Positions 1,392-14,616 of a DNA stretch of 33,343 bases are shown piece after piece (position 1 is the first letter of the stretch; each line of letters opens with the position of its first letter). The notes under the pieces were generated by a model, which saw only the letters and a list, made by a program, of their open reading frames with translations, did no database searches and was not told the origin of the DNA. The translations under genes and the position numbers were made by a program. The DNA is from a virus (taxonomy: Duplodnaviria > Caudoviricetes): positions 1 through 33,343 of IMG/VR virus record IMGVR_UViG_3300009161_000016; one strand, given 5' to 3'.

Positions 1392-2618
1392 TTAATAAAT
1401 TTTTTTAAAATGGCTTAAAGTGTAGTCTTTTTTGCTTTGTACTAGCTTGTAAATCCTATCCTCAATGCCGCCTTGGGTAAATACCCAGTACACTTTACTA
1501 GCCTCGGTGCGGTCTTTGGTCTGCATCCTTGCCCTTGATTGCCAATAACTTACGGCCGCAAAGTCTATATTGTACATAACCAAGGCGTCAGCGGTGCTTA
1601 AATTAATGCCTTCCCGTCCGCTTTGTATTTGGCTTATAAACACCGCTGGGCCGGACGCCTCGTTAAAAGCCATAGGATCGTCATAAACGAGGGCTTCATA
1701 CGTATAGCGTAATTGTAGGCCCTCGGCAATATACTTGTAAAAAATGGCTATCTTTTGCCCTTTAAACCGCTCTTTTATAAACTTGGCCTTAGTGTCGTCA
1801 AACATTATACCATTGCCATCCTCGGTCTTGACGGATCCGCTACAAATTTGGTGTACCTTTTGCATTTCCTTAACCGCCGTATCCGCCAGGACTACTTGCC
1901 CATCTTTGGTTTTAAAAAGTTTGTCCTTGGTAATTTTGCCAATAGCCCACTTAATTTTGTCCGACATTGGAACGTAAAGGATTGTTTCTTCAACTAAGCC
2001 CTCGAACCCAGCATCTTCTTGTGTATAAGTTAAAAACAAATGCGCCGTATCAATTTGAATGCGTTCTTGTTTTACTTTTGAATAGTCCGCAATTTCCCTA
2101 TTGAATACGTATTTTTTAGCCGGTATGCCATATTCCTTATGCCATGCGTAAAATGTTTTAAATAACTTATATGGGTTAAAAGTACTTACCCAAAATTGAT
2201 GGTACAACTGCGCATAACTTTCGGGCGTGGGAGTACCACTTAAATAAATAATAGGCTTACCGGCGCATATCTTTTTTAGTTCCGTCGTCCTATTGCTAGG
2301 TTGGGGGTATTGGCCTAGGGAATGTGCTTCGTCAATTATAATAAAATCATAATTTTGTTGGGCCTTATGCACGCTTTCATAATTGATAATATCTAAATCG
2401 TAAATACAAAGGCTATTATCGTAGTCGTCCTGGATGCTGCTAATGGCCTTTTTCTTGGTTACAAATAAAACCTTTTTAGCGTTATATAAACTAGCAATAT
2501 GCAAACTTGTAATTGTCTTACCAGTGCGCACTTGCATAGCTAAATAGACTAAGCCAAAGTCTTTTATTATTTGTATGGCTTGTTCGGATATGTCAACTTG
2601 GTAGTCGCGTAATATCAT
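1392..2618 (-). CDS. SF2 DEAH-box helicase (SNF2/ResIII-like)
   Basis: Q-motif LRDYQ, Walker A VRTGKT, DEAH, SGTP, C-terminal SGREGINL and QSRAR. Start placed at MILRDYQ (2618) rather than 2645. Confidence 0.9.
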   Translation of the reverse strand: MILRDYQVDISEQAIQIIKDFGLVYLAMQVRTGKTITSLHIASLYNAKKVLFVTKKKAISSIQDDYDNSLCIYDLDIINYESVHKAQQNYDFIIIDEAHSLGQYPQPSNRTTELKKICAGKPIIYLSGTPTPESYAQLYHQFWVSTFNPYKLFKTFYAWHKEYGIPAKKYVFNREIADYSKVKQERIQIDTAHLFLTYTQEDAGFEGLVEETILYVPMSDKIKWAIGKITKDKLFKTKDGQVVLADTAVKEMQKVHQICSGSVKTEDGNGIMFDDTKAKFIKERFKGQKIAIFYKYIAEGLQLRYTYEALVYDDPMAFNEASGPAVFISQIQSGREGINLSTADALVMYNIDFAAVSYWQSRARMQTKDRTEASKVYWVFTQGGIEDRIYKLVQSKKDYTLSHFKKIY

Positions 2619-2626
2619 TGGTAGTT

Positions 2627-3355
2627 TTATGATGTACAAGAACAATTAAATGCTGGAGTTAAATCGGAAAGGTCTTGCCCTTTAAATAAATCGTTTTGTG
2701 CTAAATTAAGTAATTGTTTATATGTTGTATCTTGAAAGTATGTATGCCCCCCCCCCTTCAATTTGCTAAATTCTTCATCTTCAATCCATTCGGTAGCAAG
2801 TTCTGGATAGCTTCTTAATATGTTAATTATTGCATTTTTACCTTTTAAAAAACATAAAGTACAATTACCAAGTATTGCCGGTATTTCTAAAGTATAAGGT
2901 TTTTTACTCCAATAATTATTTACTTGTGCTTTATCAATTCCTTGCTCATATAAAGGAAATTTTGGTATTATATATTTTTGTCTTTGTTGATATCCTTTTA
3001 CTCTACGTTCTTCATCGGATCTAAAACCTACAAGCCACTCATAATCTTGTTTTCCATAATTAGCCCTTAACCATCTTTTAGCAGTTTTAATTTTTAGTTC
3101 AATAGTGCATTCTCTCTTTACTCTATTTGGTATTAATTTCCATTTCTTTTTTTCAAGCATTCCTCTAAACCCACCCTCAAACATTACTCTAATAATTGGG
3201 ATATTTTCGTGGGCCTCAAAGTCATTAATAAATTTATAGGTTTTTGCATGTTCTCTACCAGTATCAGCAAATATAACAAGGTCGCCTTCTCTATAATTCA
3301 TTATTGTCATTAATGCACTTGTCTTGCCACCGCTAAAATTAATTACTCTAATCAT
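2627..3355 (-). CDS. PAPS reductase / PP-loop adenine nucleotide alpha-hydrolase family protein (CysH/DndC/SspD superfamily)
   Basis: PP-loop FSGGKTS, FADTGRE, CTxxLK, GFRSDE, FPL, and Cys motifs GNCTLCF and C-terminal CSC. Confidence 0.8.
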   Translation of the reverse strand: MIRVINFSGGKTSALMTIMNYREGDLVIFADTGREHAKTYKFINDFEAHENIPIIRVMFEGGFRGMLEKKKWKLIPNRVKRECTIELKIKTAKRWLRANYGKQDYEWLVGFRSDEERRVKGYQQRQKYIIPKFPLYEQGIDKAQVNNYWSKKPYTLEIPAILGNCTLCFLKGKNAIINILRSYPELATEWIEDEEFSKLKGGGHTYFQDTTYKQLLNLAQNDLFKGQDLSDLTPAFNCSCTS

Positions 3356-3360
3356 TGCTT

Positions 3361-3633
3361 TTATATTAAGCCATCTTGTAAAGGTTCGTCTTCTTTTTGG
3401 TCCACACGTCTATAACCTTCCTTCCATAAAATACGTGTAAGCATTACCGAGTTTTTAATTATAGTATCTTCGGAGTTGCGAGGGTATAGCAAATGCAGTA
3501 CTTCATGTATTAAAATTTCTAGGTGCTTTTTACCTTTAAGGCGCTCGTCTATTTCAATAATACCATCGCTACTAGCCATGCCATGTGCTTGCTCTCTACC
3601 TAGTTTGCGATATATAATTTTAATTTTAAGCAT
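3361..3633 (-). CDS. Small zincin-like HEXXH metallopeptidase-domain protein
   Basis: G...IEIDERL...ILIHEVLH followed by a distal Glu. Confidence 0.65.
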   Translation of the reverse strand: MLKIKIIYRKLGREQAHGMASSDGIIEIDERLKGKKHLEILIHEVLHLLYPRNSEDTIIKNSVMLTRILWKEGYRRVDQKEDEPLQDGLI

Positions 3634-3814
3634 TTTTTAAAAGGTCTTCATCTGGTCTTATGTCTTCGGTTATATGTATGCGCTGGCCTCCGCGTATTGA
3701 CGCTAAAGTTTTTCTTATATAATTTTCTAGGTCGTAAAGTTCGCTTAACTTTTTAACCAAGTAAACTTCTTGCTCACTTAACTTCATTTTGTTCCAATTT
3801 TTTGGTAATTTCAT
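3626..3814 (-). CDS. Hypothetical protein
   Basis: Operonic overlaps on both sides; start at 3814 or 3820. Confidence 0.6.
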   Translation of the reverse strand: MKLPKNWNKMKLSEQEVYLVKKLSELYDLENYIRKTLASIRGGQRIHITEDIRPDEDLLKNA

Positions 3815-6475: not shown

Positions 6476-7351
6476 ATGAATCATGGATCTTTATTTAGTG
6501 GAATAGGTGGCTTTGACTTAGCCGCTGAATGGGCCGGATGGAATAACACATTTCATTGCGAATGGAATCCTTTTGGTCAAAGAGTTTTAAAGCATCATTT
6601 TCCAAATTCAATATCATATAATGACATTACAAAAACAGACTTCTCTATTCACGAAGGAAACATTGATATCCTTAGTGGTGGATTCCCATGTCAACCATAC
6701 TCAACCGCCGGGCTTAGAAAAGGAAAAGAAGACGAACGCCATCTATGGCCACAAATGCTTAGAGCAATTCGAGAAATTAAACCAAGTTGGGTTGTGGGCG
6801 AAAACGTTCGCGGGCTTATTAATTGGGGGGGGGGGGTGGTATTCCACGAGGTGCAAACTGACTTGGAAGCTGAAGGGTACGAAGTACTCCCGTTTCTACT
6901 TCCAGCTTGCGCCGTCAACGCACCGCATCGACGAGATAGGATTTGGTTTGTTGCTTACGCCCACGACAAAAGAGGAAGTTCAAGACTTAGACAAATTCAA
7001 AAAGAGAATGGAAAAATATCCGAATGGGACAACAATGCCGAACCTAGCAACACAAATAATGAGTTTACTACCAACGCCTCAAGCAATGGAGGGGGAAAAA
7101 ATAACCGGACTAGAAAAACAAGATTCATTAACAAAAAGAGCAAGACAAATAACTGGGAAACCTTCCCAACTGAATCCGCGCTTTGTGGGGGAAATGATGG
7201 GATTTCCAGAGAGTTGGACGGAATTACCTTTTCAAAGTGGCGCAACGAATCAATCAAAGCATACGGAAACGCAATAGTTCCGCAAGTAGCATACGAAATT
7301 TTTAAAACAATAAACCAAATAGAAAATGAAAAAAGAAACTCGAGGGCGTAA
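6476..7351 (+). CDS. dcm: C5-cytosine DNA methyltransferase, large (alpha) chain with motifs I-VIII and X
   Basis: LFSGIGG (I), GGFPCQPYS (IV), ENV (VI), PHRRDRIW (VIII), YGNAIVP (X). No motif IX in this frame. Confidence 0.92.
   Translation: MNHGSLFSGIGGFDLAAEWAGWNNTFHCEWNPFGQRVLKHHFPNSISYNDITKTDFSIHEGNIDILSGGFPCQPYSTAGLRKGKEDERHLWPQMLRAIREIKPSWVVGENVRGLINWGGGVVFHEVQTDLEAEGYEVLPFLLPACAVNAPHRRDRIWFVAYAHDKRGSSRLRQIQKENGKISEWDNNAEPSNTNNEFTTNASSNGGGKNNRTRKTRFINKKSKTNNWETFPTESALCGGNDGISRELDGITFSKWRNESIKAYGNAIVPQVAYEIFKTINQIENEKRNSRA
6621..7277 (+). CDS. Overprinted (+1 frame) small (beta) chain of the C5 methyltransferase, carrying motif IX and probable target-recognition region
   Basis: 218-codon open frame nested in dcm. 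Contains LLxTP repeats and QLNPRFVGEMMGFPESWT (motif IX-like). True start uncertain. Confidence 0.75.
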   Translation: MTLQKQTSLFTKETLISLVVDSHVNHTQPPGLEKEKKTNAIYGHKCLEQFEKLNQVGLWAKTFAGLLIGGGGWYSTRCKLTWKLKGTKYSRFYFQLAPSTHRIDEIGFGLLLTPTTKEEVQDLDKFKKRMEKYPNGTTMPNLATQIMSLLPTPQAMEGEKITGLEKQDSLTKRARQITGKPSQLNPRFVGEMMGFPESWTELPFQSGATNQSKHTETQ

Positions 7352-7466: not shown

Positions 7467-7689
7467 AATAATTAAGCACTTTGAACTACTAGGCTACTAC
7501 GTTGTAAAAATAATACAATGCAATAAAAATGGCATGCCCGATTTAATGTTATTAAAAAACGGCAATACTTTCTTTATTGAATGCAAAGCCGAAAAAGGAC
7601 GCCTAAGTGAATTACAAAAGTACCGCCACGAACAACTAGAAGAACAAGGATTTGAAGTAAGAACAATTTATAAAATGCAAGAACTATGA
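7441..7689 (+). CDS. VRR-NUC domain nuclease (putative Holliday junction resolvase)
   Basis: E..LQ..I, GMPDL, FIECKA, GRLSELQ motifs; TTG start. Confidence 0.88.
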   Translation: MKESILQSKIIKHFELLGYYVVKIIQCNKNGMPDLMLLKNGNTFFIECKAEKGRLSELQKYRHEQLEEQGFEVRTIYKMQEL

Positions 7690-8303
7690 TAATTACCAAC
7701 GAAGATAACATGGCCTTAATGGCCCGCTATCCAGATAAGTATTTTGACTTGGCTATTGTAGATCCGCCTTATGGATTAGAAAGGTTACAAAAAGGATCTT
7801 TAAGACTTGGAGGTATTAAAGGTAATTATACTGAAAAATTAAATTGGGATAAAAAACCAAATGAGTTATATTTTCAAGAATTATTTAGAGTGTCTAAAAA
7901 TCAAATTATTTGGGGTGCTAATAATTTTGTATTACCGCCAACTGAATACTTTTGTATTTGGAATAAAAAACAAAGTGTAGAAAATTTTGCAAGTGCTGAA
8001 TATGCTTGGGTAAGTATGGGATTAAAAAAGCCGGCAAAGGTTTTTGAATTTTCAATACATAAACATAATCAAGTTGATAAGATACACCCTACGCAAAAGC
8101 CCGTAGCACTTTACAAATGGCTACTAGATAAGTACGCAAAAACTGGCGATAAAATATTAGATACGCACTTAGGCTCCGGATCAATAGCAATAGCATGCCA
8201 CGACTACGGCTTTGAGTTAACTGCTTGCGAACTAGATACTGAATATTACAACAAAGCAATGCAACGAATTAATAATCACATAAAACAACAAAAACTTTTT
8301 TAA
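7686..8303 (+). CDS. N6-adenine/N4-cytosine DNA methyltransferase, beta class
   Basis: DPPY precedes HPTQKP and the SAM-binding LDTHLGSGS. Confidence 0.92.
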   Translation: MIITNEDNMALMARYPDKYFDLAIVDPPYGLERLQKGSLRLGGIKGNYTEKLNWDKKPNELYFQELFRVSKNQIIWGANNFVLPPTEYFCIWNKKQSVENFASAEYAWVSMGLKKPAKVFEFSIHKHNQVDKIHPTQKPVALYKWLLDKYAKTGDKILDTHLGSGSIAIACHDYGFELTACELDTEYYNKAMQRINNHIKQQKLF

Positions 8304-12085: not shown

Positions 12086-12210
12086 TGGCAAAAGTAAAAG
12101 GTAACGACAATAAAAAGCTAACATTTGGCAAACGTAAGCAAGGCAAGGCAAAAAAAAGTTATAACAAACACACCAGTAAACCAAAGCAATATCGTGGACA
12201 AGGTCGATAA
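12085..12210 (+). CDS. Small highly basic protein, 41 aa (MAKVKGNDNKKLTFGKRKQGKAKKSYNKHTSKPKQYRGQGR), not in ORF track
   Basis: TAATG coupling to the upstream gene. The C-terminal YRGQGR is a motif I recognise from small aquatic-phage proteins. Confidence 0.7.
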   Translation: MAKVKGNDNKKLTFGKRKQGKAKKSYNKHTSKPKQYRGQGR

Positions 12211-13213
12211 AATAATACAAGTACTTGGCATAACGCAAAAGGTAAGCGGTTGCGGGTGGCATAGGGTTTTACTGCCATTGGCTTTTATGCCCGATAGTTA
12301 CAACCATATCTGCAATGTACCTACCGAAGAAATATTAAAAGAACGGCCATTTGACATGCTATTGTTTAATAGATTTAGCCCTTTTGACGATAAGTGGGCC
12401 GAAGCCAAAGAGCATTGGAAAATAGTAATGGACCTGGACGACGACTGGGAACTACCTATCAACCATCCTTTATTTCAATTCTACGAGCCACAAAAAGAAC
12501 GCGTAGTAAAGAACATACAAGCGGCCGATTTGGTTACATGTACAAACGAACGCCTTGCCGATAAAATAAGCAAATACCACAAAAACATTGTGATCCTACC
12601 TAACGCCATTCCTTTAGGCGAACACCAGTACACCGACTTTAGAAACGAAAGCGATAAGGTGCGCATATTTTGGGCCGGTGGTAGCACGCACATGGACGAC
12701 ATAAAAATACTAAACGGACCATTCAAACGCTTAATAGGAATGAAGGGCATTGAGTTAGTGCTAGGCGGTTACACCGATACCGATGAAAATTCAAAATACT
12801 ATTGGGATAAACTTTGGCACCTATTTACTAACGGCGGGCGTATACCCAATAGAAAGCTAAACGGAACCCTACCTAACGAATACATGGTACACTACGAGCA
12901 TGCCGACATAATGGTAATACCTTTAGAAGATAGCGCTTGGCATTCATGCAAAAGTAATTTAAAGATCCTGGAAGCTGCAAGCAAACGCGTAGCCGTAATA
13001 TGTAGCGATGTAGAACCTTACAACAAAGACAAAGACGCACCAGTGCTATGGGTTAAAAAGCAAGCAGACTGGTATAAGCATATTCATTATTTAGTTAACA
13101 ATCCACAAGAAAGGATCCGCATGGGTAATGACCTTTACGAGTGGGCAAAACAAAAATACAATTATGAGCAAATTAGTAGAATTAGACGCAACGAGTTTGG
13201 CCGTCTTATCTAA
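12194..13213 (+). CDS. GT-B fold glycosyltransferase (GT4-like)
   Basis: SGCGWHRVLLP, MDLDDDW, ADLVTCT, LPNAI, IFWAGGSTH, DIMVIPL, KSNLKILEA. Likely GTG start at 12194 rather than TTG at 12125. Confidence 0.85.
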   Translation: MDKVDKIIQVLGITQKVSGCGWHRVLLPLAFMPDSYNHICNVPTEEILKERPFDMLLFNRFSPFDDKWAEAKEHWKIVMDLDDDWELPINHPLFQFYEPQKERVVKNIQAADLVTCTNERLADKISKYHKNIVILPNAIPLGEHQYTDFRNESDKVRIFWAGGSTHMDDIKILNGPFKRLIGMKGIELVLGGYTDTDENSKYYWDKLWHLFTNGGRIPNRKLNGTLPNEYMVHYEHADIMVIPLEDSAWHSCKSNLKILEAASKRVAVICSDVEPYNKDKDAPVLWVKKQADWYKHIHYLVNNPQERIRMGNDLYEWAKQKYNYEQISRIRRNEFGRLI

Positions 13214-13406
13214 GCATAAACATTACTTTGATTTGTTTATGAAGACCGGCGAACTGGTTAACTTTACGCACGAAGTACAAAACGACATACTAGCAGTGTA
13301 CCAAAAGGCAGCGCCAGGATATACATACAACCGAGGATGTGGCGCATGCGTTGGCGCCTTCTTGTATTTAGTTTACAACACTTTTAAAGACCAACTTGCT
13401 TTATGA
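13164..13406 (+). CDS. Hypothetical protein with CxxC (GCGACV)
   Basis: Overlaps both neighbours; start placed at MSKLVEL. Confidence 0.65.
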   Translation: MSKLVELDATSLAVLSKHKHYFDLFMKTGELVNFTHEVQNDILAVYQKAAPGYTYNRGCGACVGAFLYLVYNTFKDQLAL

Positions 13407-13891
13407 ATAATATTCACGCGACTGCAATTATTTACGAGGGCGTACAATTAGGCGATAATATTTACATTGGGCCTTATTGTATTATAGGCGCACCGGCCGA
13501 GCATAAAGCATATTGGAATAAGCCAATAGGCAAAGTAAAGATAGGGGACGGATGCGTACTAACGGGCCACGTTACTATTGACGCTGGCACCGAGGACGTA
13601 ACTACATTAGGCGAAGGCGTATGGATGCTTAAGCATGCGCATGTAGGCCACGACGCATGGATAGGTAGTAACGTTACAATAAGTTGCGGAGCCAAGATAG
13701 GTGGGCATACTATTGTAAGAAGTAATTGCAATATTGGGCTTAATGCAGTGATCCACCAAAAGCAAGAGATTGCACCTAGTTGCATGATAGGTATGGGCGC
13801 GGTGGTAACAAAGAAACTTAAAACTGAACCTTACACTAAGTACGCGGGCAATCCGGCAAAAGAGTTAGGGCCAAATGTTATAACAAAGTAA
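13403..13891 (+). CDS. Hexapeptide-repeat (left-handed beta-helix) acyltransferase, LpxA-like
   Basis: IHATAII, IGPYCIIG, HAHVGHD (compare LpxA HIAHD), IGMGAVV, YAGNPAK. Lacks the LpxA C-terminal helical domain. Confidence 0.85.
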   Translation: MNNIHATAIIYEGVQLGDNIYIGPYCIIGAPAEHKAYWNKPIGKVKIGDGCVLTGHVTIDAGTEDVTTLGEGVWMLKHAHVGHDAWIGSNVTISCGAKIGGHTIVRSNCNIGLNAVIHQKQEIAPSCMIGMGAVVTKKLKTEPYTKYAGNPAKELGPNVITK

Positions 13892-13980
13892 TGTTATAAC
13901 TTTACTTATGTTATAACAAAGTAAGTCAATAACTTTACTTTTTGACACACATGAGCCGAATACAAGTCAAAATCGGCTCA
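13875..13980. repeat. Array of tandem and palindromic repeats
   Basis: 33-bp unit ATGTTATAACAAAGTAATGTTATAACTTTACTT repeated imperfectly (13875-13940), followed by the inverted repeat TGAGCCGA-N13-TCGGCTCA (13952-13980). Confidence 0.8.
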
Positions 13981-13992
13981 AAATATAAAAAT

Positions 13993-14616
13993 ATGAAAGT
14001 ACTAATTGCGGGCCTTGTTTATGGCAATAAGCCAAAAGACATACTAAAAGACAACCTAGCCAAAGCGGGTTATGTTTTTACGTACATAGAAGTAAATAAA
14101 GAAGGCATAGCCGACGCTATGAACGAAGCCATTGACGTAGCTTTAATTGATAACTTTGACGCCATTGCTTATTTAGCAAACGATATTATTGAATCGGATA
14201 ATTGGCTTGCTAAAAAGGTAGAGGCATTGCAGACCTATCCAAGTGCGGGCATTGTGGCAAGTAGTTTGGACTTTGTACGCGGTACAATACAAAGCGAACA
14301 CATTATAAGCAACTGGCTTTTAAGTATGGCCGTAGTTGATAAGATTGGCATCTTTAACGATAGCATGTTTCCTTATGGGCCAATAGACCTGGACTACTGC
14401 GAGAGGGCCAACCTATCCGGATTTAATACTTACTATGTAATGAACTGCAAGGCCGAACACCTAGGCAACCATGCCGGTGGCAACGAATATGGGTGGGACA
14501 AAGGCGCATTAGTTCAAAAATATTGGCCACAACACGTTGAAGATGTTTACTTATATCGCAACGGACTAAAAGATTTAAAATATGGAAACAAGGGAACACG
14601 TAACGAGGAAATTTAG
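13993..14616 (+). CDS. GT-A fold glycosyltransferase (GT2-like)
   Basis: GIADAMNEAI, YLANDI (degenerate DxD), KIGIFND...YGPIDLDYCERA...GF. Start placed at MKVLIAG. Confidence 0.75.
   Translation: MKVLIAGLVYGNKPKDILKDNLAKAGYVFTYIEVNKEGIADAMNEAIDVALIDNFDAIAYLANDIIESDNWLAKKVEALQTYPSAGIVASSLDFVRGTIQSEHIISNWLLSMAVVDKIGIFNDSMFPYGPIDLDYCERANLSGFNTYYVMNCKAEHLGNHAGGNEYGWDKGALVQKYWPQHVEDVYLYRNGLKDLKYGNKGTRNEEI

Follow-up and report, generated by a model that had tools for sequence, protein, structure and literature searches.

A phage cytosine methyltransferase gene with a second chain nested in its +1 frame and tandem candidate recognition cassettes

Two nested chains at one phage locus

The window analysed here is the entire 33,343-base contig of a tailed phage (IMG/VR record IMGVR_UViG_3300009161_000016), which bears family matches to terminase, portal, tail and primase proteins. 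At positions 6476-7351 it carries a gene read in two frames: the main frame encodes alpha, a chain with the catalytic motifs of a C5 cytosine methyltransferase, and the +1 frame encodes beta, a shorter chain that lies wholly within alpha and holds two tandem cassettes beginning with LPTP, followed by motif IX (Table 1). Both the alpha gene and a nested +1 open reading frame (ORF) of 218 codons had been pointed out in an original prediction made from the letters alone; they are present as described, and the terminase, portal and tail matches agree with the phage origin assumed there.

Table 1 Features of the nested methyltransferase gene, by position in the window
Feature	Positions	Strand	Evidence or remark
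Alpha, 291 residues: C5 methyltransferase catalytic domain (motifs I-VIII), passive linker, motif X helix	6476..7351	+	PF00145 E 3e-45, phrog_363, TIGR00675, structure model
Beta, 218 residues, nested in the +1 frame	6621..7277	+	ORF; ATG at the same or an adjacent codon in 59/68 close loci; phrog_1008 E 6e-17
QTSLF, beta residues 6-10, resembling a sliding-clamp-binding motif	6636..6650	+	Motif scan; consensus from PMC11139829
Alpha motif IV, catalytic Pro-Cys	6680..6703	+	P71, C72 and Q73 without variation across an alignment of 112 sequences (set parsed on motif IV)
G12 tract read in both frames	6825..6836	+	In frame here, often shorter in relatives
Beta residues 79-99, predicted beta-hairpin of the arm; overlaps alpha motifs VII-VIII	6855..6917	+	Strands 79-86 and 92-99, predicted local distance difference test (pLDDT) 81-85
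LPTP cassette 1, beta 111-149	6951..7067	+	Family in 12/137 loci, 9 arrangements
Alpha 168-237, predicted disordered linker, stop-free; sequence dictated by beta	6977..7186	+	Model, substitution pattern, frame openness
LPTP cassette 2, beta 150-183	7068..7169	+	Family in 20/137 loci, 13 arrangements
Motif IX, beta frame	7170..7220	+	Conserved residues; predicted helix 186-193
Alpha motif X start (GNA), overlaps beta end	7262..7279	+	Alignment, model

Motif naming follows the established scheme for C5 methyltransferases. Specifically, motifs I, IV, VI (ENV), VIII and X stand at 6491, 6680, 6800, 6926 and 7262 and, together with the predicted catalytic fold, identify alpha as a putative C5 cytosine methyltransferase. 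The PF00145 match spans alpha residues 2-221 and ends at profile position 232 of 324, and the structure model resembles M.HaeIII and M.HhaI (E 8e-16, about 163 columns); beyond the catalytic domain the model is disordered and then forms the helix of motif X. The variable region and motif IX that usually accompany the catalytic motifs in one-chain C5 enzymes are not found together with them here, motif IX being in the +1 frame. The alpha variable region consists of N, K, S and T to 51% over 70 residues, contains no stretch resembling motif IX and has pLDDT values below 50 at residues 168-176 and 179-237, which predicts disorder. The split of motifs that had been proposed, with a low-complexity variable region in alpha and LPTP units plus motif IX in beta, thus stands.

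The beta ORF measures 228 codons from stop to stop, and its ATG lies 20-21 codons ahead of motif IV in the close loci that share it. Its sequence includes LLTPTT, LPTPQA and LNPRFVGEMMGFPESWT. Residues conserved in at least 90% of sequences are W73, S75, L80, W82, T87 and L96 in the hairpin region, and L184, P186, M193-P196, W199 and T200 in motif IX. Modelled alone, beta is non-globular (mean pLDDT 61, predicted template modelling score 0.27), and a structure search with it retrieved none of 48,161 chains at Z>=5, the model being too poor to speak on novelty.

Profile searches of the +1 product, a check put forward in the original prediction, returned no Pfam family at E<=0.01, no NCBIfam or PADLOC family and no match among Protein Data Bank (PDB) sequences; the sole profile match was phrog_1008, labelled 'DNA methyltransferase', and across 112 beta members no meaningful Pfam families emerged. 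Beta falls solely into 'hypothetical protein' clusters in Atlas, and those named in the list of its 1,319 database relatives are all 'hypothetical'. This count also qualifies the earlier expectation that standard gene callers would miss the second chain. Beta is often called, and both nested coding sequences (CDS) are annotated in GenBank for Paenibacillus phage Bloom (BLOOM_56/BLOOM_57) and coliphage K1ind1 (ORF29/ORF28); the expectation holds for several records that annotate alpha alone, and one annotates beta alone. In a marine phage record (locus L088, 794-1630) the gene is split into two CDS by a frameshift ahead of motif IV, the second CDS being beta. One beta-like database chain (P0133) runs on into HNH/NUMOD4 domains (PF13392, PF07463), as a fusion with, or read-through into, a homing endonuclease.

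Both frames are coding and under selection

The +1 frame is open far beyond what the alpha codons would allow. When alpha was recoded synonymously with the codon usage of the window, +1 codons 49-162 stayed open in 1 of 20,000 recodings and codons 49-266 in none, and the longest +1 runs in 14 other genes of the window reach 21-101 codons. These 14 genes served as the control, ordinary single-chain enzymes with +1 stops not having emerged from the genome scan, where the +1 frame was open from motif IV to motif VIII in all 65 parsed loci across phyla (many of them GC-rich and hence weaker as evidence). Over alpha codons 52-160, the +1 frame is free of stops in 70/70 distinct close loci picked by alpha (81 counting duplicates and the window), with stops clustering just upstream and many stops in the +2 frame. 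In a second set picked by alpha (80 loci fetched, 78 parsed) the +1 frame was open in 76/78, against 0/78 for +2.

The reciprocal constraint is seen when loci are picked by the second half of beta (80 loci, or 67 after removal of 11 duplicates and 2 that could not be parsed). Alpha reads through the cassettes to motif X without a stop in 67/67, and the third frame in 0/67; 4.9 stops would be expected over the window's cassettes. The idea that alpha codon choice alone leaves the +1 frame open deserves practically no credence: nothing was found in its favour, no recoding keeps the full length open and substitutions follow the beta frame. Chance openness is rejected on these grounds, on the 70 close loci and on the openness of alpha in the beta-picked set.

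Substitutions identify the frame that is conserved in each part of the gene. Differences at alpha codon positions 1, 2 and 3 amount to 0.16, 0.11 and 0.45 before beta and 0.19, 0.16 and 0.53 after it, as opposed to 0.49, 0.19 and 0.17 in the cassettes and 0.28, 0.12 and 0.17 in motif IX (counts from 65 close loci, except that the cassettes are same-family pairs from all 137 intact loci; pairs are non-independent, but the pattern is clearly reversed). Cassette substitutions therefore concentrate at the first position of alpha codons, which is the third, wobble position of beta codons, and cassettes of the same family differ at 23% of residues in beta versus 57% in alpha. The 137 intact loci are what remained of 156 after removal of 19 that were cut, frameshifted or unparsed.

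Both frames are thus coding and selected. One reservation is that the loci are related, so the locus counts are not independent of each other. Stops scattered through the +1 frame of homologues, an outcome named beforehand as one that would refute the two-chain reading, were looked for and not seen; the proposed M.EcoHK31I-like arrangement is upheld in that the nested ORF is under selection and the motifs are divided as in that enzyme.

Because both frames are kept open and the ATG is conserved, the data argue for two separately started chains. Two programmed frameshifts could instead yield a single polypeptide, with ribosomes slipping into +1 behind motif VIII and returning behind motif IX. 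The motifs would then stand in their usual order, and single-chain forms do occur in nature (see below). This route would require neither a +1 frame that, with a conserved ATG, is already open about 100 codons before motif VIII, nor an alpha frame without stops in the cassette region, yet both are seen; on these grounds we rejected the double frameshift as very unlikely. About as unlikely, in our view, is a beta that works on its own, as a regulator, an inhibitor or a clamp-binding factor, and that the methyltransferase does not require. In favour of this, beta has a separate start and the clamp-like motif, and the beta chain of M.EcoHK31I tolerates the removal of about 40 N-terminal residues (PMC2836561, as far as that account extends). 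Against this, alpha lacks motif IX while beta supplies a conserved one, and relatives have both the cassettes and motif IX joined to the catalytic domain in one protein.

Cassettes, clamp-like motif and poly-G tract

Across the intact loci, beta carries 0-5 units that start with LPTP or WPTP and are mostly 25-49 residues long, making 298 cassettes that fall into 115 clusters and 100 combinations. The position of these units in the folded enzyme is suggested by single-chain relatives. At one locus (L374, 2480-3544), motifs I-VIII, two cassettes, motif IX and motif X all lie in one frame, and the +1 frame meets a stop at the start of the cassettes. Among the 120 best listed relatives of this protein, 36 are single chains with 1-5 LPTP units between motifs VIII and IX, followed by motif X, and 23 of these 36 match beta cassettes weakly (E<=1e-3, in a small database). 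Five actinobacterial loci (L365, L368, L371, L377 and L381, around 2500-3700) show a further arrangement, with motifs IX and X in alpha and the cassettes in the +1 frame. Since single-chain relatives hold the cassettes between motifs VIII and IX, we place those of beta at the small-domain position, and they behave like the tandem, exchangeable modules of multispecific phage C5 enzymes. On this positional and evolutionary evidence the cassettes probably set DNA specificity, and for the copy in the window we lean slightly towards two working specificities. The earlier suggestion that the LPTP units are recognition modules is supported to this extent, and no target site could be assigned.

Several observations weigh against a recognition role. 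No solved recognition domain in PDB or Pfam matches the cassettes in sequence or fold, the cassettes of the single-chain L374 protein fail to align to M.HhaI or M.HaeIII, and many cassettes are just 25-35 residues long. In M.EcoHK31I the recognition domain was predicted in alpha, not in beta, according to the portions available of PMC2836561 and PMC3404938. Finally, no depletion of short words tracked the two cassettes of the window after correction for multiple testing (94 de-duplicated loci out of 139), the best values being p = 0.007 for ACSGT (76 tests) and p = 0.039 for CTSAG (55 tests); the best overall, for another cassette family, were 5e-4 for CANTG and 8e-4 for GGNCC (79 tests), which are borderline and confounded by kinship.

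A two-chain methyltransferase with a single relaxed or fixed specificity, in which the cassettes are structural spacers or just one of them works, would account for the missing association between cassettes and motifs, for cassettes without a solved homologue and for a recognition domain placed in alpha. It fits less well with an alpha variable region that is a passive frame and predicted to be disordered, with cassette families that conserve their own protein sequence in beta and recombine as units, and with single-chain relatives whose cassettes lie between motifs VIII and IX; we regard it as rather unlikely and favour cassettes that act as recognition modules.

Beta begins with MTLQKQTSLF, in which QTSLF recalls the motifs that bind the bacterial sliding clamp, described as QL(S/D)LF and Q-aliphatic-x-[L/M]-[F/L] in the available text of PMC11139829 and PMC9690074. 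In 101/137 loci the 25 codons ahead of motif IV contain a motif of the Q-x-x-L-F type, versus 1.8 expected from alpha codons, an expectation that ignores shared ancestry; the strict consensus is found in 78/137 and, with Thr allowed, in 102/137. Its offset from motif IV is -15 codons in the clade of the window and mostly -7 (QLTLF) elsewhere, and three of the five actinobacterial betas terminate in a similar QLT[LI]W. The protein Hda bears its clamp motif in a disordered N-terminus (PMC11139829, in part), and the short motif of the window likewise lies in a predicted disordered N-terminus, with the differences that Thr occupies position 2 and that binding is only predicted. The word 'methyltransferase' appears nowhere in the main text of PMC11139829. 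Counting against clamp binding are the Thr of the window's motif, where the consensus has an aliphatic residue, and the non-universal occurrence of the motif, which is absent in 36/137 loci and present in 45/78 and 13/65 of other sets. The chances that beta binds the sliding clamp appear evenly balanced.

The G12 tract is read in both frames, and a shortened tract would be an off state, with an alpha product without motifs VIII and X and a truncated beta. In the beta-picked set (here 80 loci minus 14 duplicates and 4 unmatched), 5/11 loci with a run of at least nine G are out of frame, versus 0/51 with shorter runs; pattern scans gave 6 distinct G12 and 4 G11 loci, not counting two duplicates and one locus that is probably the window itself again, and alpha-beta fusions are seen among database proteins too. 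Contigs from four sequencing runs showed no change in tract length, though contigs drop rare variants. Decay and homopolymer sequencing error cannot be told apart from switching, and phase variation at this tract is doubtful.

The alpha/beta layout extends to phages of Bacteroides, Porphyromonas, Lacticaseibacillus, Bacillus, Paenibacillus and Mycobacterium, to coliphage K1ind1, a Nodularia phage, Enterobacter and Leptospira plasmids and many genomes. Pattern scans for alpha-like words led to an estimate of about 15,000 viral and 13,000 genomic stretches, which may include ordinary enzymes; the best 80 viral and best 80 genomic were examined.

In the window, the gene has a GC content of 42% compared with 37% overall, and no match to restriction-enzyme models was found among 14 ORFs at and around it (of 56 listed in the window). 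We infer a Bacteroidota host because Bacteroidota records are three of the four best matches when alpha is searched against genomes. The best read-set matches of the window are freshwater metagenomes, the first of which may be its source, and RNA read sets do not occur among the matches listed.

Three other loci of the window deserve mention. A second orphan methylase of the N6/N4 family, at 7686-8303, ends in the clamp-like residues QQKLF. On the minus strand, 2627-3355 encodes a phosphoadenosine phosphosulfate (PAPS)-reductase-domain protein that matches PADLOC SspD (E 1e-27) and has QNDLF close to the C-terminal end; with a C10 tract at 2747, this is possibly another DNA-modification gene. 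Directly upstream of the terminase, 12125-14616 holds glycosyltransferase-like genes and a hexapeptide-repeat transferase, for which glycosylation of DNA or capsid is a possible role. Counted on both strands, the window avoids ACCGT (0 versus 38 expected), CAG (306 versus 597) and TCGA (40 versus 108), with a GA/TC ratio of 0.64 and a GC ratio of 1.58; this probably reflects evasion of host restriction or another defence, and shows no link to any cassette.

Proposed mechanism and relation to known systems

Taken together, we consider it quite probable, from sequence comparison and analogy, that the gene encodes an orphan alpha/beta C5 methyltransferase with an M.EcoHK31I-like layout and probable recognition modules like those of the multispecific Bacillus phage enzymes. 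Beta would be translated from its own ATG at 6621, and its motif IX and hairpin would pack on alpha and rebuild the small domain, an assembly proposed by analogy with M.EcoHK31I. Each cassette would act as a target-recognition module as in the Bacillus enzymes, reading DNA by virtue of its position and giving the window copy up to two specificities. The resulting methylation would shield phage DNA from host restriction, a role we propose because the gene lies in a replication region, together with a second methylase, and the 14 ORFs at and around it gave no restriction-enzyme match. With less certainty, QTSLF may dock the enzyme on the host sliding clamp, in which case new DNA would be methylated as it is made.

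A tentative and rather doubtful generalization is that phages of many bacterial phyla carry a large family of programmable methyltransferases, which combine an overprinted subunit, shuffled specificity cassettes of 25-45 residues in more than 100 kinds, host-clamp riding and, in one lineage, poly-G on/off switching of both chains. If the cassettes are recognition modules, they would constitute a natural library of more than 100 very short, swappable DNA-specificity units and a common phage route round restriction that annotation usually records by half. Such modules would also cast doubt on whether EcoHK31I-type enzymes have their recognition domain in alpha, and a clamp-tethered phage methylase would be, by analogy, a bacterial parallel of DNMT1-PCNA coupling. 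The gene is also a clear example of overlapping coding, where any insertion has to leave both frames free of stops.

The nested alpha/beta design has reportedly been known since 1995 from one enzyme (Lee, Kam and Shaw). Tandem recognition domains are known as well; their combination with that design, its spread and the clamp-like start were not found in the literature searched, which offered nothing on this phage family, its cassettes or the motif and left most subscription papers outside its scope. The chains themselves are already on record as separate 'DNA methyltransferase' families or CDS, as phrog_363 and phrog_1008 in PHROGs and as the Bloom and K1ind1 pairs named above. In its available portions, a Paenibacillus phage paper lists two methyltransferases, though not as nested subunits (PMC6070908).

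M.AquI, a C5 methyltransferase of two polypeptides that recognizes CYCGRG (PMC3404938, in part), likewise has a small chain with part of the variable region and motif IX. Its small chain also holds motif X, whereas the motif X of the window is in alpha and its beta is nested. The Bacillus phage enzymes SPR, H2 and phiBssHII carry tandem recognition domains and are multispecific (excerpts of PMC8936443 and PMC12707154). They resemble the enzyme of the window, as far as descriptions can be compared, in being phage orphans whose tandem modules occupy the place of the variable region, ahead of motif IX, and in a putative antirestriction role. They differ in being single chains with proven specificities, where the candidate modules of the present family lie in a nested chain and start with LPTP or WPTP.

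The closest counterpart in layout is M.EcoHK31I, an alpha/beta C5 methyltransferase that recognizes YGGCCR (PMC2836561 and PMC3404938, in part). In C5 enzymes the small domain, made of the variable region and motif IX, makes specific contacts with DNA (PMC3404938, in part), and M.EcoHK31I needs both chains, methylation having been abolished when the beta starts were deleted (PMC2836561, in part). In both systems the whole of beta is overprinted on alpha in a different frame, and the motifs divide alike, with I-VIII and X in alpha and IX in beta. By contrast, the beta of M.EcoHK31I is described as carrying motif IX only, and that of the window has variable tandem cassettes and a clamp-like start; judged by description, a recognition domain predicted in alpha corresponds here to a passive alpha variable region that is predicted to be disordered. 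Finally, the window copy is phage-borne, and none of the 14 ORFs tested matched a restriction-enzyme model that would point to a restriction partner.
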